This document shows, piece after piece, positions 18,979 to 54,650 of a DNA stretch of 64,000 bases (position 1 is its first letter; the number at the start of each line of letters is the position of its first letter). The DNA is from Prorocentrum cordatum (Eukaryota). The notes under the pieces were generated by a model, which ran no database searches, was not told where the DNA came from, and saw only the letters and a list, made by a program, of their open reading frames with translations. The translations under genes were made by a program, and so were the position numbers. The stretch is from the NCBI GenBank assembly GCA_963575745.1, contig CAUYUJ010000043.1:1-64000 (forward strand), read 5' to 3'.

Positions 18979-20050
18979 CGTTGTCGTTGTCGTTTTCGTT
19001 GTCGTTCTGGTTATTATTGTCGTCGAATTCCCAGTTCTAAAGAATAATTCTAGTTGAGCCCCCCTGCTCCTCACGCGGCTCGCATCCTTTTCCTAAGATT
19101 TTGTCGTTGGTCCCCGGTTTACATCAACAACGGCTCCCGCCTGATACATCCTCACCATTCATTTCAAGATCGCGCCCTCGCGCGGGACGAACCTCATAAT
19201 TTAATGCACGAATCGCGCTCTCGCGTGACATTCCCTCACAATTCATACAGACGCCGCGTCCTCGCTCTCGCTTTGCTCCTTCCCGCGATCTGTTTTGAAG
19301 TCGCGCTATCGCTCGAGACCTCCCCGCGATTCATGCAGGACGGTTCTGCCACGTGTTTTTTTTCTCCTGGCCCCCCGTCCTGCCAATCTCTCCCGTCCTC
19401 CATCCTTCTGCCTCCCCCTTCCATCCGTCCACTCCTCCCCTGGCAGGCAGGGAAAAAATATGCCACCCAAGGGGGTACGATCGAAGACGAAGAGGGCGGG
19501 TATCGAGGGCTTGACGTCCTGAGAACTTGTGCAGGAATTGCGCTTTCGTGTGGGACGCCCTCGCAATTTATTCAGACGCCGCGCCCTCGACACTCTTCCC
19601 CCCATCCCTGGGGGCACCCGCCCCTTCCTGGGGGTGGGCCCGGCGAGATCCCTCCTCCCTCCTCCCCTCCCCCTCCTCTCATGCTATGACATGCTATGAT
19701 CTGCCGTGCTGTTCTATGCCATTCTTTTCCATCCATCGCGTACCCTCTTGGCATCATTGCCCCGCTCGGCATCCGACTTCGCGAATAGATGGGAGATGCA
19801 GGCCATGGTAAGGTATGGGACGGAGGGGTGGGACGTCAGATGTGACGCTAGCGCACCTCGCTTGCCCCTCCCCCCCCCTCTGCTTCCCCCCTCCTCGATC
19901 TCCCGCCTCTCCTTGAGCCCTGGGCCTCTGGAGCCATTTTGGCTCACGCCGCTTCGGCTCCACTTCGCCCCAGGCCCCGCAGGTGGCAGCGGCCTCCCTT
20001 CACGCTTCCCTCCCTGCACCCCGTGGCCACATGGAGCTGCTGATCTCCGC
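17193..20050. repeat. Tandem segmental duplication, copy 2
   Basis: Starts with gcaggacgcacgctccggcaacc as at 13016 and ends at gctgatctccgc as at 17192. Confidence 0.9.
19932..19963 (+). other. Relic dinoflagellate spliced leader(s)
   Basis: AGCCATTTTGGCTCACG matches the DinoSL 3' part at 16/17, followed by degenerate CCGCTTCGGCTCCAC (10/15 to the relic CCATTTTGGCTCAAG). Confidence 0.8.
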
Positions 20051-35330: not shown

Positions 35331-36060
35331 GCCCACGACTGTGAAGCCCACTATATGGAATGCGCCATCGTCCTCCTTCTGGAGGGGGGCCGCTCCACGA
35401 CTGTGAAGCCCGCTTAACTATCCTACTCTCATCCTCCCTCAACAGGAGGGCCGCCCCACGACTGTGAAGCCTTATTATCGCCAAACTCTTACCTTTGCCC
35501 TTCGCTGTCACTTGTCCCCCCACCACTAAGTGGCAATTCATCCCTTCCCCCCAGACTTTGAAGCTTGCCCACCCCCCTCTCACAATGAGAGGCAGGCGAG
35601 CAACGCCCCACGACCTTGCCCTTTTAACAACCCCACTCTCATCCTCCCTCAACTGGAGGGCCGCCCCACGACTGTGAAGCCCTAACATTGCCCTCGCTTA
35701 TCCCTTTACCTTTACGGTCACGTGTAACCCCGCGACTAGATAGCAATACCTACTCGGCAAACCCCTCCCCTACTACCATTTGACAGGCTGCCCCACGACT
35801 GTGAAGCACTGCTATCCCCTTGAAAGCTACCCACCTATTATGGGAGCGGCCGCGGGGGCGAACCTTCCAATACTAAAATTCGACACCTACTGCTACAAGA
35901 AGGGCCCCACGACTGTGGGGCACCACTAACCCGGACTGCGCCGTGGCCGCCTCTCTGGTGGGCGATGGCCTGCCCCACGACTGTGAAGCCCCCTAAAGCG
36001 CCAGCCCAGGCCCCAGGGCCGCCCCACGACTGTGAAGCCTCAGGGCCGCCCCAAGACTAA
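35331..36060 (+). repeat. Irregular repeat-spacer array of GCCCCACGACTGTGAAGCC
   Basis: Eight near-exact copies with CACGACTGTG cores at 35334, 35396, 35457, 35667, 35794, 35908, 35976 and 36025, separated by mostly unique sequence. Confidence 0.8.
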
Positions 36061-36557
36061 TATGAACAATGCAAGGCGAACCTTGTTGTCCCGGCTCGCC
36101 GGGCTCCTTAATCTTCCCCCCCCCACGTCCACTAAGTAGTCCTGTCGGCACTAGCAGATTCCAAGTCTATGAAGGGTGCTGCGTTAAATTGGGGTGCCAA
36201 GGGGGCCACGCTCCCAGCCCCTTAGTCCGAGGGGTCTGGGCCCTTCTGCCCCCTACAAGTGTGAACCCTACATGATGCATACGGTCTCCGTTGCTTCTCT
36301 ACCCCCCTGGCGTGGCTGGGGACAGGCATTCGCCCCAGCCCACGCTCTGATTCTAGCCCTTCCCTAACCCCCTCAGGCGGTTACTCCTTGTGCTGGGAGG
36401 GCACTTGAACGTGCCTCTTGCCACTGTCGCCCCGCTGTTCACTCCCCTGGGGGCTCTGCTGGGGTGCTCGTCGGGCGTGGGGAATCCACGCCTTTAGTGG
36501 CGCCCCGTGCGTCCCCAGCCGACTCCCCCAGAGGAGTATAGAAGAGCATTGGCACGG

Positions 36558-37180
36558 GGAGGAGGAGGAGGAGGAGGAGGAGGAGGAGGAGGAGGAGGAG
36601 GAGGAGGAGGATGAGGAGGAGGAGAGGAGGAGGAGGAGAGGAGGAGGGAGGAGGAGGAGGAGGAGGAGGAGGAGGAGGAGGAGGAGGAGGAGGAGAGGAG
36701 GGAGGAGGAGGAGGAGGAGGAGGAGGAGGAGGAGGAGGAGGAGGAGGAGGAGGAGGAGGAGGAGGAGGGAGGAGGAGGAGGAAGGAGGAGGGGAGGCGGA
36801 GGAGGAAGGAGGAGGAGGAGGAGGAGGAGGAGGAGGGGAGGAGGAGGAGGAGGAGGAGCGGAGGAGGGAGGAGGAGGAGGAGGAGGAGGAGGAGGAGGAG
36901 GAGGAGGAGGAGGAGGAGGAGGAGGAGGAGGAGGAGGAGGAGGAGAGGAGGAGGAGGAGGAGGAGGAAGAGGAGGAGGCAGAGGAGGGGAGGAGGAGGTG
37001 GATGGAGGACAAGGAGAGGAGGAGGAGGCGGAGGAGGAGGAGGAGGAGGCGGACGGAGAAGGAGGAGGAGGAGGAGGAGGAGAGGAGGAGGAGGAGGAGG
37101 AGGAGGATGATGAGGCGGAGGTTGTGGAGGTGGATGAGGGAGGCGGCGGGACGAGGCAGCAGGAGGCAGAGGAGGAGGCG
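36558..37180. repeat. (GAG)n microsatellite
   Basis: Directly visible. Confidence 0.95.
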
Positions 37181-38249
37181 GACCTGGACCCCCAGGGATG
37201 GGTCAAGGGCTCCTGGGGGCGGTCTGGGCGCGAGGCCAAGCCCTGCATGCAGGCGCTGAAGGACTTGAACCGCCAGGACCCGCTCGCCGCGCGCGACCGG
37301 GGGGGGATGCACCTGTGGGTGCGCACGTGCGCGCGCCTGTGCTCTCACGCCAGTGGTGACGCCCTGACGTCTGATGTTGCGAGCAGGCTGCGGTGGGGGC
37401 GTTGGTTAAGGCATGTGCCTCGGAGGCTTGAAAACCTGGAGGGTTCCTTACCTGATGAGGGCGGCGGTGATGTCCCTGACCACGACCCCCCACATTTCTG
37501 CGGCACTCCTCGTGCCCGAGCGAGCTGTGGTGGTCCTGGGGCCCGCAACTGGGCGACCACTGCAAAGCCCAGCGTGAAAGGGTTGCAGCCCCCGGATCTC
37601 AGGGGCGCGCGCGCGCGTGCGGAAACGCGAGCAGAGGCGCGCGGTGACGATGGGGGGGCCGCGCACCGCGGCGGCCACGCGCTGAGGGCGGCAGGGTGAG
37701 GGGGCGGGGGGCTTCTCAGAAGCGCCCGCTGCTCCTTCGGGGGCGCGGGCCCCGGCTGCTGTGCAGCTGCAGGGCCGGCGCCCGCTCAGGAGCGGCCTCC
37801 TGAAGAACCCTCCCCCCTCCCCTGGAGGAGGAGGAGGAAGGGGAGGAGGAGGAGGAGGAGGAGGAGGAGGAGGAGGAGGAGGAGGAGGAGGAGGAGGAGG
37901 AGGAGGAGGAGGGAGGAGGAGAGGAGGAGGAGGAGGAGGAGGAGGAGGAGAGGAGGGAGGAGGAGGAGGAGGAGGGACGGAGGAGGAGGAGGACTGCCCC
38001 TGCCCGCCCCGACCCGCTGTCGCCTCCCACCGTGTCCGGCCCCCGCCCCCCCTCCCCCCGTGGGCGCACGTCCTCGGGCGGCTGCCCCCGCGCGGCCCCT
38101 GCGCGGCTCGGCGCGGACCTGCGCGGCGTCGGCCGGCGGCGGCGCGAGCGGCGCGCTTGGGCGCGCTTGGCGCCGACTCCTCCTTCTCCTTCTCCTCTCC
38201 ACACCCTCCTCCTCCCTTCCTCCGTCCCCTCCTCCTCCTCCTCCACCTC

Positions 38250-38276
38250 CGCTCCTCCTCCTCCTCCTCCTCCTTG
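38250..38276 (+). repeat. Left target-site duplication of the LINE, CG(CTC)7CTTG
   Basis: Matches CG(CTC)5CTTG at 44293-44313 apart from two CTC units. Confidence 0.65.
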
Positions 38277-38313
38277 TCCGTAGCCATTTTGGCTCAAGCC
38301 ATTTTGGCTCAAG
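38277..38313 (+). other. Full dinoflagellate spliced leader plus tandem 15-nt relic SL
   Basis: TCCGTAGCCATTTTGGCTCAAG (exact 22-nt DinoSL consensus DCCGTAGCCATTTTGGCTCAAG) followed by CCATTTTGGCTCAAG. Confidence 0.97.
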
Positions 38314-38538
38314 TAAAACATTTCCCAAGGCAGCTGGCCGTTCAGCTCCGTTCCATTCCATAACTCACAGGACCGTGAGAGCTGCCCAGCCCACGGCTCC
38401 GCTCCATATTCGCAAGACGAAGCTCTCCTTCGCACAATTACTAATTCAACTAATTCGATTGCAGGTATCTGGATTGGCTCTTCTCTCGCTTGGCATCGGG
38501 CAGGCAATACGTGGCATTGTACTGTACAACGCTTCCGA

Positions 38539-39927
38539 ATGGACTCCGCCTCCGCTTCTTCTCGCAGTGACTCCAAGAGCAGAAGTCAGGCCAGTGGACA
38601 CCGTCGGGATCGCCGCAGACAATCAGAAAGGCACGACAGGAATAGAGACCGAGACCGTGATCGACATCGCCGACGTGATAGGGATCGACGCCAACGCACT
38701 TCTTCATCTGAAGGTTCACGCCCTCCGCACAAAGGACACAGTGGACGCTCTAAAGGCCCTCTCGAACGTGAAGCAAACGGCGCCCCTCGTGGATTTCATT
38801 CAGCAGCCACACAAGACGCATGGCAACGAGCAGCACTGGAAGAACTCGATGCAGCACCTACTTTCCCCTCTCAAGAACAAGCTCACTGGCAAGCCCATCA
38901 ACACGCACAGCGAGAACGACAAGCACGTGAACACCATGAGGCTCAAGCCGCACGCGACGCCCACGAAGCCGCACAGCCTCCCGCCGCACAGCTTCCTGCC
39001 GCTTCAGCTCATGCAGCAGAAGGCACCGCCACGCCAGCAGGCGGACTGTGGCCTCAATCAACATTGGACCCAGACATTCAGCACGAGCCCAAGCAGATCA
39101 TGGCATCGCAAGTGGCAGCAATCAATACCGCAGTTGGAGAAACAGTATCCGCCTCGCAAGCGCAGTTCACTGCCGCTCTACAGCGACACGAAGCAGCTAC
39201 CACTCGCAGATTGGATGGGCAAGAACAAGACCTCATGGCCATCAAGATCGCTCAAGCCAAACAAGAATCACAACATCAGGAAGTCTGGAGTGCCATCCAG
39301 CGTATCAATCTGCAGCTCAGCCTGGGCGAAGCCGACGCTCCCATCCTGGACATGGCCAAGCTCTCAGACTGGGATCGCGAACCCGATCCCGCCATCTACA
39401 TTCTCTCCTCCGCGCAGCCCGTCGACGCTGCCGCAGTGCGCACGTCCATCACAGAATGGTTGGATGCAGCAGAAGTGGCCCCGCAGCAGTTTCAGATTCA
39501 CGGCGAAGGACCCAATCGGCGCTTCATACTTCAGCTTTTGGGCGGCCGATCTGTCGCCATTCCCAAATCCATTGCGCTCGCTCGTGCCCTTCAGCTTCCA
39601 GGACGAGGAGGTTACAGAAAGTTCACAGTTCAGACCCCCGCCAACTGCGTCATCAATCACGGCCAGTACGTCCCGCTCTACGTCAACCCCGATAAGAACA
39701 TCAAGCGCATCAGAATGGAAACTCAAACTAAAAAGCTACTCGCTCTCTGTCAGACCCACTACCCCACGCACAATTGGCGTGCGCGTCGCGATCAAGGACG
39801 TATTTTCTGCAATACCATCCCCACCGCCAAACTGGAGCTCACTGGCATGGACGCGGCAACGGTCATTCGTTGGAATCAAGATGCGCTGGCCAAGGTTCCT
39901 ATCAACAATGCCACCATCGCTGCATGA
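38539..39927 (+). CDS. LINE ORF1 protein (RS/RD-rich N-terminus, probable coiled coil, C-terminal globular domain)
   Basis: 462-aa ATG ORF between the SL and ORF2, with a LYVNPDK motif near the C-terminus. The frame continues past TGA to TAA at 39970-39972. Confidence 0.75.
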   Translation: MDSASASSRSDSKSRSQASGHRRDRRRQSERHDRNRDRDRDRHRRRDRDRRQRTSSSEGSRPPHKGHSGRSKGPLEREANGAPRGFHSAATQDAWQRAALEELDAAPTFPSQEQAHWQAHQHAQRERQAREHHEAQAARDAHEAAQPPAAQLPAASAHAAEGTATPAGGLWPQSTLDPDIQHEPKQIMASQVAAINTAVGETVSASQAQFTAALQRHEAATTRRLDGQEQDLMAIKIAQAKQESQHQEVWSAIQRINLQLSLGEADAPILDMAKLSDWDREPDPAIYILSSAQPVDAAAVRTSITEWLDAAEVAPQQFQIHGEGPNRRFILQLLGGRSVAIPKSIALARALQLPGRGGYRKFTVQTPANCVINHGQYVPLYVNPDKNIKRIRMETQTKKLLALCQTHYPTHNWRARRDQGRIFCNTIPTAKLELTGMDAATVIRWNQDALAKVPINNATIAA

Positions 39928-39962
39928 TTTGCCGCTCTCTACAAAGCAGAGGACACAGTACA

Positions 39963-40391
39963 ATGGCTTTAACAAACGCCGGTCTCCATGGAGAACTACG
40001 ACCACAGACGGAGACCATGCTAGACCTCCTGGACCTGAAGCACCGCGAGGACATCGGCCTCATCCTCTACAGCACCTTCGGCCAGCACCTGTCCCCCAGC
40101 ATCCTTGCCCTGAAGCTGCGCGCGCCCCTCTTCATCCCGAATGTGCTCCACGGGAACCCAGCCCAGATCTTCAGCATCATAGAGCGCCAGCTGATCTACG
40201 TGCACTGCGACGACAGGCACACGGGGATTGGGACGTCCCTGTTGCCCCCAAGGGACGGGGGAGCCCTCCAGATGTTATTTCAGATCTCTCGGGCCTGGAG
40301 TGCCCGTCAGATTCGCTTCATCCGCAACGTGATCTGCCCCATTCAGCGCAAGCGCTACTTCTTCCCGAACAAGATCACATTCTCAAAATAG
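39963..40391 (+). CDS. 142-aa middle ORF of unknown function inside the LINE
   Basis: ATG at 39963 overlaps the end of the extended ORF1 frame (CAATGGCTTTAA). The product is non-repetitive and globular-looking with C-ending codon bias, and ends TCA AAA TAG. Confidence 0.55.
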   Translation: MALTNAGLHGELRPQTETMLDLLDLKHREDIGLILYSTFGQHLSPSILALKLRAPLFIPNVLHGNPAQIFSIIERQLIYVHCDDRHTGIGTSLLPPRDGGALQMLFQISRAWSARQIRFIRNVICPIQRKRYFFPNKITFSK

Positions 40392-43300
40392 ATAAGACGC
40401 AGAATGGCACGGCTTCAACTTTCAGCTCATCTTCGGCATATACATCATCGTCCTCTACCAGCGCTTCTTCATCCTTGTCGGACTCCAACTCATCATTCAA
40501 CAACCGTCGGTCTCGCGCTACTCGTACACGTACACGACCTTCTACAGCGGATACAGCAGGCAGCTACATCTGTTGGAACGCTCGCGGTCTACTCTGTCAT
40601 GATGATGCCAAGCGATGGGGGAAGATACGGCAGCTCGTCCCTTTCATGCGCAAGCAGTCGCTCATCGCTCTTCAAGAGGTGCACAGCACACAGCTCGATC
40701 TCGAATCACACCTTGGCAAACTTCCTTACGACTATCAGGTCTTCTTCAGCGGCTTCCCTCACAACCGCGGCAAGGGGGGCATCGCCTTCTTAGTACCGAC
40801 GCCTTCGATGACGACGACTTCTACCTCGCTTTGGCCAGTGATACGCGGGAGGGTTGCTGTCCTCCATGTGGCCAACCACACCACAGGCTTCGAAACGCTT
40901 ATCATGAATGTGCACAATCACGACCTGCCGGCTACGGATATGGATAGAGTGACGGAAGCGCGGCATGCTTCCCGACAGTGGGCAGCGCAGAACCCACAAC
41001 AGCGGTTATTCATTGCCATGGGCGATTTCAACACCAGCGCGGTCCCCTCCTTTAACTTCAAAGATCCATCTGCACGTTGGCGGCCGATGGCTCCTGACGG
41101 ACAGTATCAGCGCGAACAAGCTCGCTGGCGTCAACTGTTTGCCTCGCTCACGGAGGTTGCGCACGACCTGCCCGCGCACTTCTCGGCCAACACACAAGCA
41201 GCCACTGCCATTGACCGCATCTTCGTGTCGCTGTCGGGCATCGATCTCATGAACGTCGACGCTCACCTCAAGATCCACAAAGACGGTGCTGCCTTATCAC
41301 ATAAAGGCCTCAGTGACCACGCGATCCTGCACCTGCTGCTGGCCAACGCATCGGCGACGCAGAAGGAGGAACAGGCCATCGATCCGCTCATCTTTCACGA
41401 CCCCACGTACCAGCGCCACTTCAACTTCCTGAAGGACAACGTCGCCTCGGCAGCTCTCACGCCAACTGGTGCCTGGAAGCAGCGCAAGCTCATCATCAAA
41501 GAAGCGGCTCGCCTCACTCGTAATCTTCAACAGCGAGCCTCTCTACATGATCAAAGCCGCTGGGCGAAGCATGGGGGGCTTACTTCACTACGTGCTATTG
41601 CTCGGACGGTTTGGCGAAAAGACTCAAACGCGGCAGCGCTCCTCATGGCCGCGACGGACATTGGCGCCGCTCACCTACGCCTTACCGACAACGGGCCCGA
41701 GCTCATCAACAGAGACGGGTACATCAAACTCATGGATGCAGCTGTTACTGCTGACTACGACAGACGCGTCGCCATCGCCGCGAAGCGCCAGCTCCAGTCC
41801 CACGCCGAGATGCAGATGGACCAGGCCGGCAGCCGCAAGGCCGCGATGCAGCTCATGCGCCGGGCGCAGGCTTGGAACCCATTTCGTCGTCGCCTCGTGC
41901 TTTCAGGACTTAGGATACCAAAAGAGGGGACACCCACCAATGCCCTCCCCACCACCAGCTCACCAGAAGGCATTTTCGGAGGTCTTCAGAAGTTCTGGCA
42001 GCCCATCTTCTCGAGCAAGACCGTGGACCCCTACGCGGTCCAGTCGCACTTGACCCAGCACCTCCCCGTCTTCGATTGCGCGGACCTGCGGGTTCCAGCT
42101 CTTCAGGACTTTCAGAGAGCCCTTCGCAGGGTACGTCACACTGCCCCAGGCCCTGACCAGATACCTTATGCTGCATGGGCTACTTCTTCAGGCTCCTCCC
42201 AGATCTTATATGACCTCATGATGCAGATGTTCGAAACAGGCCTGGCCCCGTTTCAGTTCAACGATTCCGTCTTCGCTTTTCTTCCAAAAGGTGATGAGCC
42301 CCAGGACCAATATGCCGTATTTCGAGCTCCAGGTGCCACTCGCCCCCTCTCCCTGAAGAACTGCGACGCCAAACTGATTGCCCACGTCGTGAACATGGGC
42401 TTAGTGGATATGGTCAAAGAGAGAACGGAAGACTCGCAACAGGGGTTTGTAAAGGGCCGTAATTTCGGACAACGCGTTCTGACGCTAGACTCTGAAGCCC
42501 GTAGAGCAGGCCATTCCCCAGCTGCCCTTGATGCCTTCCCATCTTAGTCAGTTTCGATATCGAAGCTGCCTTCCCATCCATAGGATGGGAATTCCTGTTT
42601 GCTTCTTTGGTGGCTCACGGAGTCCCCCCAGGATATCTTAATGTCACCCGTGCGCTTTACCATTCTCCAGGGGCGTGGGCCCGCGTCGGTGGCCAGCTTC
42701 GGTACATGTTCGAAATCGGCTCTGGGGTGCTTCAGGGCTGTCCTCTTTCAGGATCGATATGGGCCCTTGCGTTTGATGCCCCCATCCGTCATCTAGTCCA
42801 GATTTTAAACCTTCTTCCTGGATCTAGCAAGCTCGGTGCCTGCGCAGATGATCTGGGCCTTGTCCTCGCTCGCCTTGGGACCCTCCCTTTCCTCCTTCCC
42901 CCTTTTCGGGCCATTGCTACTCTCGCGGGACTCGAACTTCAGATTCAGAAGACAGTGATTGTGCCCTTGTGGGCCGCCTTCTCACCCGCCGTGCAATCTC
43001 TCACACAGCGCTTGCTCAAATTTCTAGTCCCAGAGTGGCAGCGCACTCAGATCGCCGAGTACGCCCGCTACTTAGGGGTACTCATCGGTCCCGCCGTTTC
43101 TCTAGACATCCATTGGAAGGCTGCATTTGATAAATGCTGGCTACGGGTGGTGCAGCTTGCGGCGAGCGCACCAGGCCCCTCAGTTGCCATCAAACTATAT
43201 AACACATGTGTTGTAACTGTGTTATCGTATATCACGCACTATTTCCAGTTCCCTGCCACATTTCTGCGGCATGAACGAAGCACGCTGCACAAGATTTTAC

Positions 43301-44209
43301 GTGCTCCCCCCAACTCCTGGCGCCTCGTCGACCTCCTCGGTACTCGCTCGTGGTCGCCCTCGTCCTCCCCCAATTCACTGGTCACGCTTTCACTCGCAGC
43401 TGCATGGCGCACCGCCACTGTCACGCTCCCCGACTGGGAGCCGCTGTATCGCGAGCTCTTCCTGGCCCAGGACCAGCTCAATCCAGAACTGTCCCTGGCG
43501 GATTTGGGGCAGGCCCGTATTCGGGCCACGGTTTCGCCTGTGTTTTGGAAAAGTCCAGGTATCGTCGAATATTGGCGCGACCTCGCCGACGGTCAGCCGC
43601 CATATGCCGTCTCACTGCCCATCTGGCGCGCGGCACAGCGCGCCGCTGCAGATGAGCACGCCGTTGCCTCCAACGAAGCGCGCCGTTCTAGGGTCCAGCG
43701 ACAAGTTCGCAGAGACCCTGGCGCGCCGCCTCTCGTCGGCTCTCCCTGAAGTCGTGCTCCCTCCAGCCCTGCCAAACCGCTGGAAGGAGCTATCTGAATA
43801 TCTTTCAAAGAAAGCACCAGCCATCCGCTGGGCTGTCTTTAAAACGCTAGCGGGAGCGTGGTGGACCAGCCACCGATTCCCCTTTGGACCGCGCCGCACG
43901 TGTCTGCTCGGGTGCGAAGCTTGCCCAGGCCGTCTCGGCCACTACCTCACCTGTCCCCGCCTTTTGCACTTCCTCGCGTTACCTCGTTCCTTTCTCTCCT
44001 CGGACCCCCTCGTGCGAATTGGCCTAGGGACGACAGAGCAACGCGCAAACCCAGAGCACACAATTTCAGAATTTGTTCGCAGGACAGCACTTTCATTTCA
44101 CTTTTACAACAAACTACGTATCATTACGCACGCCGCGCCCCGCGCCGCGCTTCTTTACACTACAGGCATTGAGTGCCTAGCTACTGCACTGCACGCGATG
44201 CGGCCATAG
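40392..44209 (+). pseudogene. LINE ORF2: apurinic endonuclease, reverse transcriptase and C-terminal Cys/His finger, with two frameshifts (start position uncertain)
   Basis: APE motifs CWNARGL, ALQEVH, MGDFN, IDRIF, SDH. RT motifs APGPD, RPLSL, QQGFVKGR, FDIEAAFPS, GVLQGCPLS, CADD. C-terminal CLLGC...HYLTC. Frameshifts at ~42540 and ~43700. Confidence 0.9.
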
Positions 44210-44292
44210 TCGAGACAAGCGGACGCGCGGACACTTGCCCTCTTCTCGCGTCTTGCCCGCCTGCCCTCGTCTCGTCCCTTTCATGGTACGGT

Positions 44293-44313
44293 CGCTCCTC
44301 CTCCTCCTCCTTG
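44293..44313 (+). repeat. Right target-site duplication of the LINE, CG(CTC)5CTTG
   Basis: Lies 83 nt after the ORF2 stop and matches 38250-38276. Confidence 0.65.
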
Positions 44314-44877
44314 CCCGCTGGCGCCTGCGGGCTCGTGGCCTTCGGCGCGCACCTCCTGCTCCGAGCCGCTCCTTCCGGCAGCTGCGGCTCGCGGGCGCCG
44401 GCGGTCGGGGCAGGGGTCGGGCGGGCCACGCCTCGCCCCCCGAAAGGGGGGGGGTCCTTGGCGCGGGATGTCAGAAGTGATCCTCCTGCTCGGCATCGTC
44501 TACCCGATCCCTATCCCCTGCTCCATCCTCGTCCAGATCCCCACCATCCCACCACTCTAGTTGGGGATATGCCCCTCGAAGCTCGAAGCGAACAGCCTAT
44601 ATCCCCATCTAGGGGGATATATCGGCCAGTGTGGCCCAGGCCACGCCCGTGGGGATAGGGATCGGTTAAACGATGCTCACTACAGTCAACCCGCATAGCA
44701 AGGATGCGCGACTTTCCAAGGCTACACCCTTGTATCCTTGTCCCCTCGGCCCATCCTCAGGTAACCTTCGCGGGCCAGCCTTGTGCGAACAACGTCAACA
44801 TTGCCCTCCAAGAAGGCCCTTGCATCCTTACCGCGCATCCTTGTTATACGGGCTGGCTGTACAGCAGAAGCCCCTGC

Positions 44878-45200
44878 CAAGAAACACCCTGCTTGCCTTC
44901 AGCGCGCCCTGGGTTTCTTGGGTTTCGATGGTCTCGCTATGGAACAGCGTGACGGCTCCCATTCCAAAAGTCAATGGACGTCCTGGGGCCTCAGTGTGGC
45001 AGGAGGGAAGAAACGCACACAGACACAACTAATCTGCGATTATCCAGAAACTATGGGAAAGTATGGGAAGTGGGGGGAAGACAAAAACCCAGAATATATT
45101 ATGGGAAGATCTGGGGAATCCTGTTATTTGCGTCTATTTATCTACCTGTGTGTCCCAAGGCCCCTCCAGTGTTGGGCTTCTTGTGGAAGGCTTCTTGTGG
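44878..45200 (+). repeat. Dispersed repeat, second copy at ~47022-47170
   Basis: caagaaacaccctgcttgccttcag...ccctgggtttcttggg...gggcttcttgtggaagg occurs twice; the first copy carries ~170 bp extra. Confidence 0.75.
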
Positions 45201-46240: not shown

Positions 46241-46340
46241 NNNNNNNNNNNNNNNNNNNNNNNNNNNNNNNNNNNNNNNNNNNNNNNNNNNNNNNNNNNN
46301 NNNNNNNNNNNNNNNNNNNNNNNNNNNNNNNNNNNNNNNN
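46241..46340. other. Assembly gap (100 N)
   Basis: Run of N. Confidence 1.
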
Positions 46341-47571: not shown

Positions 47572-47700
47572 GAGAGGAGGAGGAGGAGGAGGAGGAGGAG
47601 GAGGAGGAGGAGGAGGAGGAGGAGGAGGAGGAGGAGGAGGAGGAGGAGGAGGAGGAGGAGGAGGAGGAGGAGGAGGAGGAGGAGGAGGAGGATAAGATGA

Positions 47701-47762
<62 letters not shown>

Positions 47763-47980
47763 CTGATGATGATGAAGATGCTGATGCTGATGCTGATTCT
47801 GATGCTGTTGATGCTGATGATGATGATGATGATGATGATGATGAGGAGGAGGAGGAGGAGGAGGAGGAGGAGGAAAGGGAGGAGGAAAGGGAGGAGAAGA
47901 AGAAGAAGCTGGAGGAGGAGTAGGAGGAGTAGGAGGAGGAGGAGGAGGAGGAGGAGGAGGAGGAGGAGGAGGAGGAGGAG
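47572..47980. repeat. (GAG)n/(GAT)n microsatellite
   Basis: Directly visible. Confidence 0.95.
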
Positions 47981-50900
47981 GAGTGGAGTGGAGTGGAGTG
48001 GACCCCGTTGCGATGCAAGTTCGGTTTCGCCTAGCCTGGCCTGGATGGAGCGCTCGAGCGAGCCGATTGCTCGGCTCGACTCAGGACCTTGGGCTGTAAC
48101 CCCCTGTGGATCCTGTCAAGGTATGCCCTTCCGTGCTTGGACAATCTAAGCTTACAAGGCGCTTTCAGCGAGCATATCGCCTTGTCGGCGATGGCCCCGC
48201 ACACACTACAAAACCATACCTGGAGTGACACGTGTACATTCAAGGTGTGTGTAGTATGTGCCCAGCCCCCCGCTATGTGTACCCTCGCCCCCCTCCTAGG
48301 AGAGAAAATGACCCCATTCACATTGTACAGGGGGGTACATTCAGAAGCCCAGAATTCTTTCACAGTGTCAGCGGATGCTGATCCGAAACATTGCAGGCAT
48401 TTCCGCTGGCAATCGGCCAGCCTGTGGCGGGACTGGAACGCAGCAACAACAGAAGCAGGCAGAGGAGGAGGGGGGGGCGGGGGAGGCGGGCCCGTTGGGG
48501 CCTCACGAGACTTCCGCTTCTCCTCCCGCTCAGCCTCTCGAGTGGCCTGCATGCTGTCCATCGCAGCTCTCGCCAATCTCATGCGCACAAGGAACGCGCG
48601 CCGCTCATGACACAACACACGTGTGCGGATGGCTTGTGGGACACGTGCCTTCTCCGCCGCGAATCCAGCGAACTCGTCGGCCAGGGCGTTGCCGATGACA
48701 AGGGAGCGGATACCTTTTCCGTCCAGCATCTCAGCGGGTCCCAGATGTGACCTGGTCCACAAAACCACAACGTCACAAAACTCTCGGGCGTGCATGAGCT
48801 CGCCAATCTTCTGCCATAGGTCTGCGTCAAGCCCCACGGGTTGAGCGAACCGTTTCTCGTACCACCCCTGTGCGACCGCCTCGCAGTCAGTGGTGTAGGT
48901 CAAATATCTAGAGGTAGTCCACAGTGCCATGTACAGGGCCATCAGTTCGCCTCTGGGTACGACCTGGCGGTCGCCTTCCAAGGGGCCGAAGACAGCACCC
49001 GTGATCAGCAACTCTGGAAATATCTGCTCTGTGCACACAATCGCAACACCTACACGTCTCAGCCTTGTCATGGCCGAGTCAGCTCCACCGCTGGCGTCAC
49101 CATATATCTGAATTGGTGCCGCTGGTGAACCCTCTCCAAACACGCCCTGGGTCAAGCCGTTGATGCCGACAACCTCCCACTGGGCTTCTGTCGGCGCCGT
49201 CGGGACCTCCAGCCATTGGGACGGGATGAGGCCCCTCAGCCAGAAACACTCAGCCGTGTCGACCTGTGTCAGTGCCTGAGGCACCAGCTCCTCCGAGGCC
49301 ATGTAGGATGGGGAGCCGGTGTTCTTGGGGCAACCCCACGCTCGATGGCATGGAGTCTCAGGGTGTTCCCGACATCGGTCGCATAGTGCATTACCTCGAT
49401 AGCCCTTGAGCTCGTCGACCTTCCGCTGCTTCGTCCAGAAGCCTCCAGTGGCAATGTTGACCAGCACCTCGGCCAGGCGCAGCCCATGTGGGAGTTGAGA
49501 CACCTGAAGCAGTAGAAGACGCAGGGACTCATTGTCGACCCCTGCCTCCATGCCTCCTCCACAATAATGTCGAGCTGCTTGGCGCCATTGCATAAGTTCA
49601 GCCGACTTTCGAACATCTGCAAGCAGCCCTCGGTGATTGTCAAGCCACCTATTGCCCGTGAAGATCTCATCTGGGAACTGCCACTCCTCCGTCGTGTTGT
49701 GCTGAGACGCATATGACCAAACCGACGTTCTGACTGGGTCCCACTCCAGCTTGAGCAGTGTCAGTATGGTGGCGGAGATGGGCCCCTTAACAGCACGAAC
49801 TTGATCTTTGGGCGGCCGACCTCGCATATCTGCCACGATCCGTGGCCATACATACTTGATGCTCTTCCGCAGGTCAGGCTGAGACTGCCAGGTGTCCATC
49901 CACAAATCGATGCAGCGAACTGGATATGATACCCCTGGGTCACAAGACGGTGCCCTGAGGTCTAATAATGTCGTCAAACATCGACCGCGAACTCCACTTC
50001 CACATGTCTGCCCTAGCCTCCGTCGACACCTTTTCAACTGTTCTCCGAAAATTCCGTGGATTTGGAAGCCGTAGGTGCCCGCAGGCTGGCCTCCGTTCTT
50101 TTCTAACTTGGATAACTGCTGATATCTTTTCCCAACACGACAATACCGAACGATTTGACCATTCATGCGCTTATGTTTAGCTTGCCTCTGGGTGCGAGTG
50201 GCTCGGCCTCCACGCCCACATGAGAAGTCTATTCCCAAGTATGCGGCCTGCCGAGCAACTTTCACCGTGAACCCTTTCAATTTGATAGCTTTGGCCACCA
50301 TGTGCGCGTCCTGCATGGTAGTGCACATGATGACTGACTTTTTGGCGATCTTGAGTCCCACTTTGCTGAGCTCCTGTCCCGTCTTGACCACGCTCTTGAT
50401 AAGGTTGGTCCTGACAGCCTGACGAGAGCCTGTTGTCTTTTGCGAAATATCATCAATCCAAACTCGATGGGCCATCATCGGCGTCGCCGTCGTCACAGCC
50501 TTCATGACAAAGTGCGTCAGAACTTTGGCAAACCGAGTGCCTGACCTCAGGCCTTGCACGATACTTTGGCACGGTTCGAACGGAGACGACACTGCCCCCT
50601 CAAGCGAGAGGGTTCTCGTGGCAACGCACATCACCAGCTCAAGATATAATATGATAGGTGGGAAGTGCAGGCGCAGCGCGGCCTTGGCCAGCGGCATCCA
50701 GGGGATCGTGTCGTAGAACTCCTGGACGTCCAGCAATCCGTGGCCGAACTGGAGCCCCATCGTGCTCGCCAGCTCCTCATCCACCGCTCGGAGGTATGCC
50801 TCCTTGAGGCATGAGTTGCCTGCCACAGCTGCGTCCCACGTCTGGGCTTCGTCTGTGGACCACTGCCGAACGAGTGGTTCGCGGATGTGAGACCACACCC

Positions 50901-52970
50901 TGGCGAGCATGGGTGTGATCCCGATAGCTCTATCTCCACTTGACTTCTTCGGTGTGAGATGCCCCACAACTAAGAGTACCTGTACAGGCCAAGCCAAAAC
51001 ATGTTCGATGCTGTGCAATACCAACACCAGTTCTTGAATGGCAGCACTGGGAAGTCTTTGAAAATCAATTGGGCTCATCATGTCCACTCCGAGTCCCGCT
51101 TTGGCCTTCATAGACCTCGTGCTCCGATAAACCTGTTCGACCGTGATATCGGGCAGAGAATCCCACTTGGCCTCCTCACGGATGAGACGGAAGATCTCGC
51201 GCACTTCCCCTAGGTCAGGGGGTCTCGGGGCCCACAGCTTTTTGAAAGCCACCGCTTTCTGATCCAGGATCTGGGCCGGGTGGATCAAAACCTTACCGTC
51301 AACCTCGAGGTCAGGTGGTGGCGTCGGCTGCTGCTTCAGGGCCTTGTGAAGGATGCCATTCGCACTGGGGTCGTCCGTAACCCACTGCTTGAAGTCGTGC
51401 AGGGACTCGCGCACTGCAGTGCGCTGTGCACGGGCTTGAAGTTTCCGTGAACAATCGACGAAAGAATCCAGGACTGGGGCCGCCGTCGTCAGCGGGCACT
51501 TGAGGAGGGTAATCCACTCGTCCATGGGCGGCTCCTTCCCTGGGTTGATGATCGTATGAACGTTGGGTGGCCGTGAGTCACACAGCTGTCCGCATATCTT
51601 GGCATACTCGTCGAGCTGCCTCTTCCCATTCTGACGTGAACGGTGGCGAGATACACTGCTGAGGACTGTGTGTACCCGTGTCCACCACTGGCTTCGTTGG
51701 TCCCTGAGCGGCAGATGGCGCGTGTGCGCCGTCGTCCGCAGTGGGCGTTCGACGAACCTGGGGCCCTCTGACCGTGGCACACCAGGGCTGACCTGAATAT
51801 CATGATGCAGATGGATGGCCCGTTCGACTGCAGACGCCCAGCCAGCGTACATGCCAGAGACAAGTGTGCTATGCTGAGGTTCGAGCGAAAAGGCTACGGA
51901 GGAGGAAAGGTGGGGGGAGGTCGCAGCCACCACTGAGGCTCCTGGTTGAAACCCAACCTGGCTCCTACTCTCAATCCACGTCTCAACGGGGACTTCAAAT
52001 GTGGGCTCAGGTTTGGTCCCAGGGCTCAAGCTGGTGGCTTGCTGCTGCTGACTACACTGGGGTTCCGAGGGACGGGGGGGCTGGGCTTCACACACATCCG
52101 AATTACTGACTACTCGACTCAGATCTATGCCTTTTTCCCCCGCCCGCTGAGGCTCCTGAGGGGTCTTACCCGATGGCTCTCCCAGGGGCTCAAGGGTACT
52201 CGGCAGTTGCGCATCGCTACAGAAGTTGAGCTCGTTGGCCCATGGGTCCTCCTCAAAATCTGGGTGAAACAGAAACTCGGGATCCATGTCCTCCTCCAGC
52301 TCCCGCGGATGCTGCTGGCCAGCAGGGTCCTGGGCTCCATGGTCCTGGAGGCAGTCCCCGAAATGCTTTTCAAAAAACTCAGCTCGCTTCTCGTGTGCCG
52401 AGAGCCGTGCTGCTATAAGCTTAGCCCGTGTGACGCTCGACTTGGACCCGGCTGTTGGTTCCACTCGAGGCCTCGGGGGTTGAGGGAGACGGCACGGCAA
52501 CTCAAGCTCTCGAGTCTGCAGCTGCTGACCCGACGCTCGCAAGGTGATAGCTAAGCCTATATGGGGCCTCCAAGCCACATCCCGAATTGGATTCACTTCC
52601 TTCACAAAAGGGACAGCCGATGGGCTCATTACAAGGTAATCAAGCATGCTGTCTTCCCCGTTCTTTTTGGCGCAAGTGCCCGTGACATCAGCCGTTCTAA
52701 TGATGGCGCCCCCGACGCGCTCCAGGAATTTGGACTTGGCTAACGTCTCTGGCGACATGTTGTAGTCCCCGATGCACACCCATGGCATACGTATTGAAGT
52801 CAAGAGGCCCCCCAGCTTGCGAAACCTTTCACAATTGCGACCTGACATTCCAATACACGGGAACGCATACAGCACGATAACCACGATGGCATAGCCCTGC
52901 TGCTGAAGTAACATGGGTAGGAAACCGTCTAGTGCACTCGACCCTGGTGCCCGAAGATGCTTCGCGGGAA
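47981..52970 (-). mobile_element. 5'-truncated non-LTR retrotransposon with RNase H, ending in a (CACTC)4 tail
   Basis: Single long pol ORF, a ~30-nt 3'UTR, then (CACTC)4 merging into (CTC)n. The 5' junction lies within the APE domain at a (CCT)n tract. Confidence 0.9.
48031..52914 (-). CDS. LINE pol: partial APE endonuclease, reverse transcriptase, CCHC finger, RNase H and C-terminal Cys/His motifs
   Basis: 1627 aa uninterrupted. APE: IGDYN, LDYLV. RT: DRAIGITP, LLDVQEFYDTI, IVQGLRSG, WIDD, YLGI. Finger: CDRC...HRAWGC. RNase H: IYGDASGG, RGELMA, TTDCE, WTRSH, GNALAD. Confidence 0.92.
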   Translation of the reverse strand: MLLQQQGYAIVVIVLYAFPCIGMSGRNCERFRKLGGLLTSIRMPWVCIGDYNMSPETLAKSKFLERVGGAIIRTADVTGTCAKKNGEDSMLDYLVMSPSAVPFVKEVNPIRDVAWRPHIGLAITLRASGQQLQTRELELPCRLPQPPRPRVEPTAGSKSSVTRAKLIAARLSAHEKRAEFFEKHFGDCLQDHGAQDPAGQQHPRELEEDMDPEFLFHPDFEEDPWANELNFCSDAQLPSTLEPLGEPSGKTPQEPQRAGEKGIDLSRVVSNSDVCEAQPPRPSEPQCSQQQQATSLSPGTKPEPTFEVPVETWIESRSQVGFQPGASVVAATSPHLSSSVAFSLEPQHSTLVSGMYAGWASAVERAIHLHHDIQVSPGVPRSEGPRFVERPLRTTAHTRHLPLRDQRSQWWTRVHTVLSSVSRHRSRQNGKRQLDEYAKICGQLCDSRPPNVHTIINPGKEPPMDEWITLLKCPLTTAAPVLDSFVDCSRKLQARAQRTAVRESLHDFKQWVTDDPSANGILHKALKQQPTPPPDLEVDGKVLIHPAQILDQKAVAFKKLWAPRPPDLGEVREIFRLIREEAKWDSLPDITVEQVYRSTRSMKAKAGLGVDMMSPIDFQRLPSAAIQELVLVLHSIEHVLAWPVQVLLVVGHLTPKKSSGDRAIGITPMLARVWSHIREPLVRQWSTDEAQTWDAAVAGNSCLKEAYLRAVDEELASTMGLQFGHGLLDVQEFYDTIPWMPLAKAALRLHFPPIILYLELVMCVATRTLSLEGAVSSPFEPCQSIVQGLRSGTRFAKVLTHFVMKAVTTATPMMAHRVWIDDISQKTTGSRQAVRTNLIKSVVKTGQELSKVGLKIAKKSVIMCTTMQDAHMVAKAIKLKGFTVKVARQAAYLGIDFSCGRGGRATRTQRQAKHKRMNGQIVRYCRVGKRYQQLSKLEKNGGQPAGTYGFQIHGIFGEQLKRCRRRLGQTCGSGVRGRCLTTLLDLRAPSCDPGVSYPVRCIDLWMDTWQSQPDLRKSIKYVWPRIVADMRGRPPKDQVRAVKGPISATILTLLKLEWDPVRTSVWSYASQHNTTEEWQFPDEIFTGNRWLDNHRGLLADVRKSAELMQWRQAARHYCGGGMEAGVDNESLRLLLLQVSQLPHGLRLAEVLVNIATGGFWTKQRKVDELKGYRGNALCDRCREHPETPCHRAWGCPKNTGSPSYMASEELVPQALTQVDTAECFWLRGLIPSQWLEVPTAPTEAQWEVVGINGLTQGVFGEGSPAAPIQIYGDASGGADSAMTRLRRVGVAIVCTEQIFPELLITGAVFGPLEGDRQVVPRGELMALYMALWTTSRYLTYTTDCEAVAQGWYEKRFAQPVGLDADLWQKIGELMHAREFCDVVVLWTRSHLGPAEMLDGKGIRSLVIGNALADEFAGFAAEKARVPQAIRTRVLCHERRAFLVRMRLARAAMDSMQATREAEREEKRKSREAPTGPPPPPPPPPLPASVVAAFQSRHRLADCQRKCLQCFGSASADTVKEFWASECTPLYNVNGVIFSPRRGARVHIAGGWAHTTHTLNVHVSLQVWFCSVCGAIADKAICSLKAPCKLRLSKHGRAYLDRIHRGLQPKVLSRAEQSARSSAPSRPG

Positions 52971-53260
52971 GAGGAGGAGGAGGAGGAGGAGGCGGAGGAG
53001 GAGGAGGGGGAGGAGGTGGAGGAGGAGGAGGAGGAGGAGGAGGGGAGGAGAGGGAGGAGGAAGAGGAGGAGGAGGAGGGAGGAGGAGGAGGAGGAGGAGG
53101 AGGAGGAGGACCAGGAGGAGGAGGAGGAGGAGGAGGAGGAGGAGGAGGCGGAGGCGGAGGCGGAGGCGGAGGCGGATGCGGAGGCGGAGCAGGAGGGGGA
53201 GGAGGAGGAGGAGGAGGAGGAGGAGGAGGAGGAGGAGGAGGAGGAGGAGGAGGGGGAGGG
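52971..53260. repeat. (GAG)n microsatellite
   Basis: Directly visible. Confidence 0.95.
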
Positions 53261-54650
53261 TTATTCGTGGCGCGCCGTAAGCATCAACAAGCTAGCGCAA
53301 TTTCCAGAACGGCACATTGGACTCGATGCCGGCGTGCACAAGGGGGTGGTATTGGACGACTTCGAAAATTGTTGCTTGAGGTCCAGGAGTATGGTCCCAG
53401 AACAATGCTCCCGAACAGTACGATACTTGGAAATTCAACGGAGTGCACTCAGACGAAGAAGGACATGGTGACGGATCGCCTCAACGGAGACCGCCAAGAG
53501 CGCCGATGCACGCGAGGCGGCGCTCGCTGTCGCAGAGGATCAAGGAACTCGAGGCATAGCAGGGGGGTTAGCGCGAAGGCCGCCCCGAGGACGCCCTGAG
53601 GATCATGACGAGGAAGCCCTGCGGGCCGCAGAGCGAGATGTGCGAGAGTCAGCGAAAGAATCCGAGAATCCCGAAGCTGGCAGCGGCCGAGGAGACAAGA
53701 ACCCGAGTGTGCACATGATTGAGTCTGAACTCGAGCAGAGGCGCGCAGCGGTGAAGACGCTCAGCCTACGCGCGAAGGAAGAGGAGTCGCGAGCTGGGCA
53801 GGAGATCTTGCGAGTGCGAAACAGGCTTCGGCTTGTCCGAAGCCGGAGTTGCTCGGGTGGTACGAGTGGACTGCGTGGCGATCAACGGAGGGTCTTAGGG
53901 TCGGCTCCAAGACCGCGCGAGGAACAGGCCTATGGATAGATCAGGCAGAGGAATCCAACCTGGAGACGCATAGTGTCGATATATCACGGGGACAACTGGC
54001 AGGATGACGACGGGAACAAAAACGCAAAGCGACCGACGCGGCAACGAGAAGCGTGATTCAGAGAGTTTGAGACGTAAGTCCTAGCATACCGAAGCCGAGC
54101 TCAGCGACGTCAGCGGCTGGAGGACCGCCCAAGATTAGCGCGGCGATCAGACGACTAGAGAAGCTGTGCTGCAAAAGAGAAGATGCGGATTTCGCGAGAT
54201 TTATAGCTGCGACGGAGAAGATTAAGTCGATGCTGTTGCAGCTAGATTGGATAGATGAATATCGGAGAGCGACAGCGGTGCATAATCTTCGGACCTAACA
54301 TCGTATCTATGTGGGCCAGGGCTTGGACCGCGACTGCTCAAGAATGAAGCAGGCGGTCCTGGATGCATGGATGACGCAGACGAGCACAACGGCCCAATAG
54401 GCTCAGGATGGAGTCCGAGCGCGATGATAGGCACGGAAATCATGAGAGAGTTGTGCGAGCGGTACGAAATCGATTTAGAGTTTTTGGCGGGAGACGAAGA
54501 GACTCCAGGAGAGTTTTCTTGACGGGGGCACTCTCGTTCCGGGAAGCCTGCATGAGGAATCCGATCGTGCAGCGCGAAAAGAGGGGTTGCTGGCCAAGCC
54601 GCGTCTTCTGGGGCCAACGGTACCCCGTGTTCGGCGAAGCAGACGAAGCG
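53261..54650 (-). pseudogene. Possible highly decayed LINE ORF2 fragment
   Basis: Minus-strand peptides SIDLIF (~54225), SDRRAL (~54150) and TPGPQATIFE (~53390) echo the APE motifs IDxIF and SDH and the pre-RT motif APGPDG at roughly the expected spacing. Weak evidence. Confidence 0.3.

Follow-up and report, generated by a model that had tools for sequence, protein, structure and literature searches.

We analyzed 64,000 nucleotides of the forward strand of contig CAUYUJ010000043.1 from Prorocentrum cordatum (hereafter, the window). As read from the sequence of this 64-kb window, positions 38277-44292 (+) are a 6016-bp retrotransposon of the kind that lacks long terminal repeats (LTRs), and its first bases are the dinoflagellate spliced leader (DinoSL). 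DinoSL is a short leader that dinoflagellate cells splice onto their messenger RNAs. In this element, which is a long interspersed nuclear element (LINE), a complete leader is followed by a shortened one (a relic), and both lie inside the target-site duplication. We consider it likely that the template for this copy was a mature LINE messenger RNA (mRNA) that had been trans-spliced to the spliced leader (SL) and already carried one relic, that the lineage has passed through at least two such cycles, and that the leader is a heritable mark of travel as a host-processed mRNA.

The element begins with TCCGTAGCCATTTTGGCTCAAG (38277-38298), which matches the DinoSL consensus, DCCGTAGCCATTTTGGCTCAAG, at 22 of 22 positions (the consensus is as quoted in excerpts of PMC7245778 and PMC5585692). 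Directly behind it, at 38299-38313, the relic leader CCATTTTGGCTCAAG begins after the leader's internal AG and matches at all 15 positions. This is the arrangement of a DNA-encoded DinoSL relic, with leader and relic at the 5' end and the cut at the AG of CCGTAG. The original prediction for this stretch, which was made from its letters, had placed a perfect DinoSL at the element's first base and a perfect 15-nt relic behind it, and both are there. With up to one mismatch allowed, the relic 15-mer occurs at four sites in the window, versus 0.00 expected (100 shuffles). The body of the element, 3' of the relic, opens with TAAAAC.

The left flank, CGCTCCTCCTCCTCCTCCTCCTCCTTG (38250-38276), and the right flank, CGCTCCTCCTCCTCCTCCTTG (44293-44313), are equal except for two CCT units. 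Both arms of this target-site duplication keep the unique ends CGCT and CCTTG, with lengths of 21 and 27 nt, and the duplication bounds the element as had been predicted. Since the duplication encloses the leader, the leader belongs to the insert and not to the target. This speaks against the concern, raised along with the prediction, that the leader might belong to the site as it was before insertion. The noncoding features are:

38177..38276 (+): pyrimidine-rich tract of 100 nt (94% C+T), of which the final 27 nt form the left duplication
38250..38276 (+): left target-site duplication, CGCT(CCT)7TG, 27 nt
38277..38298 (+): complete 22-nt DinoSL (D = T), starting at the element's first base, with AGs at 38282-38283 and 38297-38298
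38299..38313 (+): perfect 15-nt relic leader, with its terminal AG at 38312-38313
38314..38538 (+): 5' untranslated region (UTR), 225 nt
44210..44292 (+): 3' UTR, 83 nt, ending in ...CATGGTACGGT
44293..44313 (+): right target-site duplication, CGCT(CCT)5TG, 21 nt

Three AGs (at 38282, 38297, and 38312) fall within the 37 nt of leader plus relic. The leader and UTR (262 nt) are free of ATG, and the ATG of the first open reading frame (ORF1) comes first; an ATG-free outcome was also seen in 248 of 5000 shuffles of the UTR. When the window was compared to itself with BLAST, only the self match was returned, with neither LTRs nor a second copy. We also noticed a change in the composition of the + strand: it is purine-rich at 36001-38000 (32% pyrimidine) and turns pyrimidine-rich in the ~200 bp ahead of the element. 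An assembly gap of 100 Ns lies at 46241-46340, 2 kb downstream of the element.

The recycling of processed cDNAs by this kind of route goes back to Slamovits and Keeling (2008), as related in excerpts of PMC3229502, PMC7245778, PMC5585692, and PMC12014239, and its outcome, a leader plus a relic that is cut at the internal AG, is described in excerpts of PMC3229502 and PMC7245778. If the recycling model applies, a new leader and a relic on the template mean that the source copy began with a DNA-encoded leader, and therefore that there were at least two cycles. On this reasoning from the leader and the AG-cut relic, we retain the prediction's claim of at least two rounds of trans-splicing and full-length reverse transcription.

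We propose the following history. The source copy would already have been headed by a DNA-encoded leader, and its transcript would have been re-spliced at that leader's internal AG. The template RNA would have been the mature, SL-trans-spliced LINE messenger, with one relic already present, and target-primed reverse transcription would have placed the LINE into a (CCT)n microsatellite in the sense strand. In all, there would have been at least two successive rounds of transcription, SL trans-splicing, and complete reverse transcription. ORF2 would have been lost after insertion, via two frame-breaking deletions. The last insertion itself is plain from the window: an APE-endonuclease LINE was inserted with a target duplication of ~21 nt, and its cDNA reached the leader's first base.

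Coding content and decay of the window copy

The element's reading frames, and the two places where ORF2 changes frame, are:

38539..39927 (+): ORF1, 462 aa, frame 1, with the GC-phase signature of frame 1 over 39064-39663
39924..40391 (+): middle ORF, frame 0, 155 aa, with its ATG and the stop of ORF1 sharing bases (ATGA)
40550..42544 (+): ORF2 piece 1, frame 2, with the APE endonuclease (~40574-41320) and the N-terminal part of the reverse transcriptase
42532..43746 (+): ORF2 piece 2, frame 1, with the reverse transcriptase core and its CADD box at 42841
42533 (+): lesion 1, the loss of one base, which moves ORF2 from frame 2 into frame 1; other copies mostly carry an extra C behind 42533
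43699..43701 (+): lesion 2, frame 1 to frame 2; other copies have ~35-38 further letters
43718..44209 (+): ORF2 piece 3, frame 2, with the Cys/His motif CLLGCEACPGRLGHYLTCP at 43901-43957 and a TAG stop at 44207-44209

The identification of the element as a LINE is confirmed by two domains of ORF2. The endonuclease matches PF03372 with E = 1e-9 (38.9 bits versus a cut-off of 24.5) and lies N-terminal to the reverse transcriptase, which matches RVT_1 with E = 1.7e-11 (44.6 bits versus a cut-off of 29.6). Endonuclease residues H122, N123, D159, N161, D256, and H257 are invariant in an alignment of ORF2 (alignment A1). For the C-terminal piece, there was no match to a Pfam family at E values up to 1, save for a DUF at chance level, and no restriction-like endonuclease was found there. 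The only in-frame ATGs of frame 2 upstream of the endonuclease are at 38849, 39881, and 39908.

The predicted layout (5' UTR, ORF1, a middle ORF, and ORF2) holds for ORF1, with its 462 aa, and for the middle ORF, with its 155 codons, but ORF2 is not one ORF. It is split over three frames, which means that the coding capacity of this copy is not intact. Similarly, the copy is full-length in that it is complete from end to end, but with two lesions in ORF2 it is neither intact nor active. The three pieces are colinear with a relative of 1215 aa (P0008): they align to its residues 2-645, 653-997 (E = 7e-40), and 1044-1146 (E = 2e-12).

Contigs from public sequencing runs (X1-X4, described below) carry other copies of the family, and these clarify what happened to ORF2. 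An extra C behind 42533 accounts for 58.3 of 60.6 in contig depth in X1, for 7.94 of 7.94 in X4, and for 5.08 of 5.08 in X3. At the second lesion, X4 has 35 letters between 43701 and 43699, and X3 has a loose end before 43699; colinearity with P0008 puts the second frame break between 43600 and 43718. Thus, the two lesions account exactly for both frame changes of ORF2. Judging from these contigs, the family form is a single continuous ORF2, and the window copy has decayed: it still spans the whole element but is dead. We also considered that programmed frameshifting might explain the split ORF2. However, the missing bases are present in other copies, and there is no slippery heptamer near the ORF junctions.

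A HMMER search with ORF2 against 1.84 billion representative proteins gave 2040 proteins with E ≤ 0.001, including 53 with E ≤ 1e-30. The closest full-length relatives are 27-32% identical and include two NCBI proteins from Prorocentrum cordatum and proteins of several metagenome contigs of 4-5 kb. Other matches are short fragments with 59-99% identity. A single public eukaryote protein set supplies all of these, and one stretch of the endonuclease is represented among them by four or more distinct variants. A separate protein search with ORF2 gave a single match (P0001, 36% identity). Among solved structures, the best match to the reverse transcriptase core is human L1 ORF2p (PDB 8sxt, E = 1e-7), with R2 at E = 3e-3. 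The reverse transcriptase is thus apparently L1-like by best structure match.

ORF1 and the middle ORF have no clear relatives. The N-terminal part of ORF1 is of low complexity (rich in R/D and in A/Q/E), and ORF1 matched no Pfam family. For residues 180-462, the predicted fold, of low confidence, has a long helix and, after it, an alpha/beta part; the single-sequence model of ORF1 has a mean pLDDT of 48.7, too poor for a structure search. A protein search with the same residues gave 7510 candidates, none of them significant. In the Atlas, ORF1 led to unnamed clusters only (0.92) and the middle ORF to nothing usable. The middle ORF has a third-position GC signature that fits coding in frame 0, and neither Pfam nor the Atlas gave it a family or recognizable relatives.

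Frame 2 is open for 1422 codons, at 38279-42544 (+), from within the leader, through all of ORF1 (which is in frame 1), to lesion 1. Given the codons of ORF1, 3.9-6.5 stops would be expected in frame 2 and none is observed; zero stops was reached in 1 of 1000 synonymous permutations and in 0 of 1000 codon shuffles. At 38940-39692, all three forward frames are open. The open frame 2 across ORF1 might reflect base composition, or else a reading frame that overlaps ORF1. When the frame-2 translation through the leader and UTR was used to search for peptides that encode the leader, there were 140 candidates and none was significant.

Other copies of the family and the (CCT)n target

To the region 37900-44700, with 38216-38287 masked, we aligned the contigs of four runs (X1-X4) at a likeness of at least 85%. 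These runs, one organism run and marine metagenomes, belong to seven that a search of public runs listed, none of which is on record as RNA; five of the seven contain part of the sequence, the best of them a share of 0.23. In these four runs, 988, 190, 1193, and 76 contigs matched at this threshold, across all identity classes. By these matches, the element is one member of a diverged multi-copy family.

Several of the contigs have insertions or deletions within 1-12 nt behind the junction of leader and UTR. An A is missing at 38315 (two contigs of X2 and one of X3), a base is missing at 38318 (two contigs of X1), a T is inserted behind 38320 (one contig of X2), and a T is inserted behind 38325 (one contig each of X1 and X2). 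Changes so near the junction can be called only if the alignment has a left anchor in the relic or leader. Therefore, by these eight contig calls, several non-identical copies in three runs join the leader or relic to the same UTR start. We have moderate confidence that the leader-UTR junction is common to several copies of the family, for which the family-level evidence comes from the unmasked part only.

Behind 38339, 7 contigs of X1 and 3 of X2 continue with unlike sequence. (These counts, like the other counts of loose ends, are among the loose ends listed; there are 360 further rows beyond these.) Both consensus continuations start with AGGTCAGC, which suggests that the first 26 nt of the UTR (38314-38339) are conserved between LINE subfamilies. 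We considered whether this segment could have come from the intron of the SL RNA, but it does not start with GT, and the relic intervenes.

Forms that are truncated at the 5' end were also found: there is a joint from 44312 to 42336, and loose ends before 42341 occur in two contigs of X1 and three of X3, among those listed. With these sister copies, the target-site duplication, and the lack of LTRs, all three hallmarks of a LINE are present. A candidate for the empty-site allele, suggested by joints from 38197 to 44291 and 44294, was rejected: its sides are at most 21 nt long, lie in CCT-rich sequence, and are unlike the true flanks, so these are low-complexity matches.

Other searches for copies came up empty. 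The 22-mer 38318-38339 had no matches in public genome contigs or in viral contigs, and the 20-mer 38318-37 had none in metagenome contigs. With the C-terminal part of ORF1, there were 199 pattern stretches in metagenome contigs, of which none was confirmed; with ORF2 (alignment A1), there were 21 stretches in viral contigs and 2 in genome contigs, again with none confirmed.

As for the target, the window has 13 (CCT)n runs of at least four units on the + strand (282 bp) versus 73 on the - strand (2411 bp), and the element occupies one of the rare runs on the + strand. A second retroelement lies on the - strand at ~48034-52970. It has an open frame of 1750 codons with an RVT_1-like match (E = 1.5e-5, below the Pfam cut-off) and no LTRs, and it is unrelated in sequence to the first (E = 0.73). 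On its own sense strand, it is bordered on both sides by long CCT arrays (52971-53253 and 47574-47983). A further copy of the first family, seen in run X4, has the end ...GAGTACGTGCAC, which is followed directly by TCCTCCTCCTCCT with no poly(A) in between. Insertion into (CCT)n in one orientation seems to be characteristic of both elements, given two of two elements in the window and two contig junctions. We also noticed that the first ~105 codons of the second retroelement (48034-53283 in the window) run through the upstream (CCT)n array, and its 5' end looks truncated by eye. This second element has no leader.

How the leader came to head the element

Several observations weigh against the history that we propose. 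No poly(A) tail was found at the 3' end, where ...CATGGTACGGT abuts the duplication, and the copy of a polyadenylated mRNA might show one. The tandem 15-mer could in principle stem from a duplication at the DNA level. The mask over 38216-38287 spans the start of the leader, and so it hides whether the leader of the other copies is complete and how many relics follow it. The loose ends listed are a partial set, so copies with a different sequence 5' of the UTR are compatible with the data. And a second full copy was found neither in the window nor by the searches of genome, viral, and metagenome contigs.

The history in which a trans-spliced LINE messenger was copied back into DNA may also be taken further. 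We see it as a possibility, though less likely than not, that the coupling to trans-splicing is obligate, which is the idea of the original prediction. The LINE would have no promoter of its own, and the AGs of the leader, behind the (CCT)n tract, would form a portable 3' splice site. Read-through transcripts would be trans-spliced at this site to give a capped full-length RNA in each cycle. The leader and relic, which attest to repeated cycles, fit with this idea, as do the three AGs in 37 nt behind 100 nt that are 94% pyrimidine. Furthermore, both retroelements of the window sit in (CCT)n on the sense strand, and the third copy (the one in X4) is followed by TCCTCCTCCTCCT. Also, an Rfam scan of 37500-45000 found no ribozyme: its sole match was a snoRNA model on the opposite strand, with E = 0.35. 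However, insertion that targets the repeat explains the pyrimidine tract by itself, the first 26 nt of the UTR, which look conserved, might just as well be an internal promoter, and the case for coupling is one from sequence. A broader form of the idea is just as speculative: dinoflagellate LINEs may have tied their life cycle to SL trans-splicing, by going into (CCT)n tracts in one orientation and taking the leader with them into DNA. Each copy would then be a self-contained acceptor at which any read-through transcript could yield a capped, full-length LINE mRNA with no promoter, and the same machinery might be the source of the very numerous leader-tagged retrogenes.

It is also conceivable, though we think it rather unlikely, that the leader was captured in the past and is now inherited as part of an ordinary 5' UTR. 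An internal promoter would then fire at the leader's first base, and trans-splicing would not be needed today. Internal LINE promoters that start transcription at the first base of the element are known. The presence of the same junction in several diverged contigs fits with inheritance. Also, Song et al. put forward a role for DinoSL relicts as promoter-like motifs (in excerpts of PMC5585692), and the Pr77 segment of the trypanosomatid LINEs is a 5' promoter that yields unspliced transcripts (in excerpts of PMC1874656 and PMC8190864). However, the leader and relic match perfectly at 37 of 37 positions in a family whose members differ by up to 15%, which speaks somewhat for renewal by fresh splicing. 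Furthermore, the relic proves that re-splicing at a DNA-encoded leader took place at least once.

The leader might instead come from a chimera: the reverse transcriptase would have reached the true 5' end of the LINE (for instance, near 38340) and then jumped to the 5' part of an unrelated, leader-bearing mRNA of the host. Template-switch chimeras are known for L1, and in the 7 contigs of X1 and 3 of X2 among those listed, the sequence agrees with the element over the 26 nt 3' of the relic and departs from it beyond 38339. But the divergent continuations start with a similar AGGTCAGC in X1 and X2, which points to related subfamilies and not to a host gene. Furthermore, variants of the junction turn up in more than one run, which means that the arrangement is inherited. 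This makes a chimera very improbable. Even less credible is that contaminating cDNA or a misassembly put a transcript into the contig: nothing specific favors this beyond the 100-N gap in the window (46241-46340), while the duplication has the unique ends CGCT...CCTTG on both sides, the two lesions are present, and the element passes without a break into its genomic flanks.

If a trans-spliced messenger was the template, then the element resembles the DinoSL-relic retrocopies of host genes. As in those, a leader at the 5' end is DNA-encoded, the relic is cut at the internal AG, and the tandem arrangement stands for repeated cycles. Unlike those, the cargo is the retrotransposon itself rather than a host gene, the target-site duplication is clear, and there is no poly(A). 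Good descriptions of leader-tagged retrogenes exist (in excerpts of PMC5585692, PMC12014239, PMC7245778, and PMC6050394), and in these excerpts retrotransposons figure only as the presumed supplier of the enzyme. Available parts of a preprint (10.1101/783902) call retroposition and retrotransposition independent. In the excerpted text of Song et al. (PMC5585692), the Gene Ontology (GO) term "RNA-dependent DNA replication" is enriched among relict-tagged genes, which we read as an implicit precedent for a leader-tagged retroelement. In the excerpts of the literature searched, a search to which supplementary tables were external, we found no statement that a dinoflagellate LINE starts with the leader.

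The element also has much in common with other APE-type LINEs: an N-terminal APE endonuclease, a reverse transcriptase, a C-terminal Cys/His motif, the order of ORF1 and then ORF2, a target-site duplication, and 5'-truncated copies. It differs from them in having no poly(A), an extra ORF of 155 codons between ORF1 and the endonuclease, and a host leader instead of a promoter-bearing UTR as its 5' end. It combines a leader-tagged retrocopy and an APE-type LINE in one element, as seen here in a single dead copy.

CRE, SLACS, CZAR, and NeSL-1 insert into SL RNA genes and have a restriction-like endonuclease. Like the element, they are LINEs that are linked to spliced-leader sequence in trans-splicing organisms. 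But here the leader is within the element and is followed by a relic and a UTR, not by an intron that begins with GT. The (CCT)n flanks and the N-terminal APE-type endonuclease likewise set the element apart from those that target SL genes, as the original prediction had maintained. R1- and R4-clade Waldo, Mino, and Dong are LINEs that target microsatellites. They share with the element its oriented insertion into a simple repeat, but here the repeat is (CCT)n, and it is used by two unrelated elements. L1Tc and ingi are LINEs in a host that trans-splices all of its mRNAs, and they too have a short conserved 5' segment that is common to element families. Their Pr77 drives internal initiation and gives unspliced transcripts (in excerpts of PMC1874656 and PMC8190864), while the element described here bears the mark of spliced transcripts.

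LINEs have two known answers to the problem of the 5' end: an internal promoter or a 5' ribozyme. A coupling to trans-splicing, if it is functional, would give LINEs a new way to recover both the 5' end and expression each time they jump. Dinoflagellate genomes have thousands of leader-tagged retrogenes, for which the source of the enzyme and the rules of the traffic are unknown according to excerpts of PMC5585692 and PMC12014239. A LINE family with the leader inside its own target-site duplication links such elements directly to the recycling pathway, and the element's reverse transcriptase would be one that copies capped, trans-spliced RNA up to the very first base.

Leader sequences elsewhere

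Exact 21-nt matches to DinoSL also occur in viral contigs from IMG/VR, at 119 loci (L001-L119) and 136 unique sites, mostly in GVMAG-* bins (20.6% GC). We rejected these sites as copies of the LINE: LINE ORF2 was found at 0 of 133 sites, with the positive control working, and the sites are uninformative about LINEs. Literature titles gave nothing on a host leader that is encoded in the DNA of giant viruses, as far as titles go.

The viral sites have features of their own. The base before the leader is A at 129 of 136 sites. An ORF of at least 100 aa that starts with ATG lies within 192 nt after the leader at 111 of 125 viral sites, versus 121 of 400 random positions. The motif TGA[AT]A lies ~45 nt upstream at 108 of 133 sites, inside the consensus AAAAAATTGAAAA, and we take the motif within this consensus to be the Mimivirus early promoter. 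Most of the leader-headed viral ORFs are orphans (44 of the 60 scanned had no family); DUF4116 repeats and zinc fingers were seen, and no reverse transcriptase. Mimivirus-like viruses of dinoflagellates may thus encode the host leader in their DNA, behind an early promoter, in more than 100 genes.

Within the window, relic leaders of the form AG|CCATTTTGGCTCACG (with one mismatch) are at 17070-17090 and 19928-19948 (+), with the 15-mer at 17076 and 19934. The two are 2858 bp apart and have nearly identical contexts, with a pyrimidine-rich stretch before each and the same sequence after. They look like a host locus of the retrogene type that has been tandemly duplicated.

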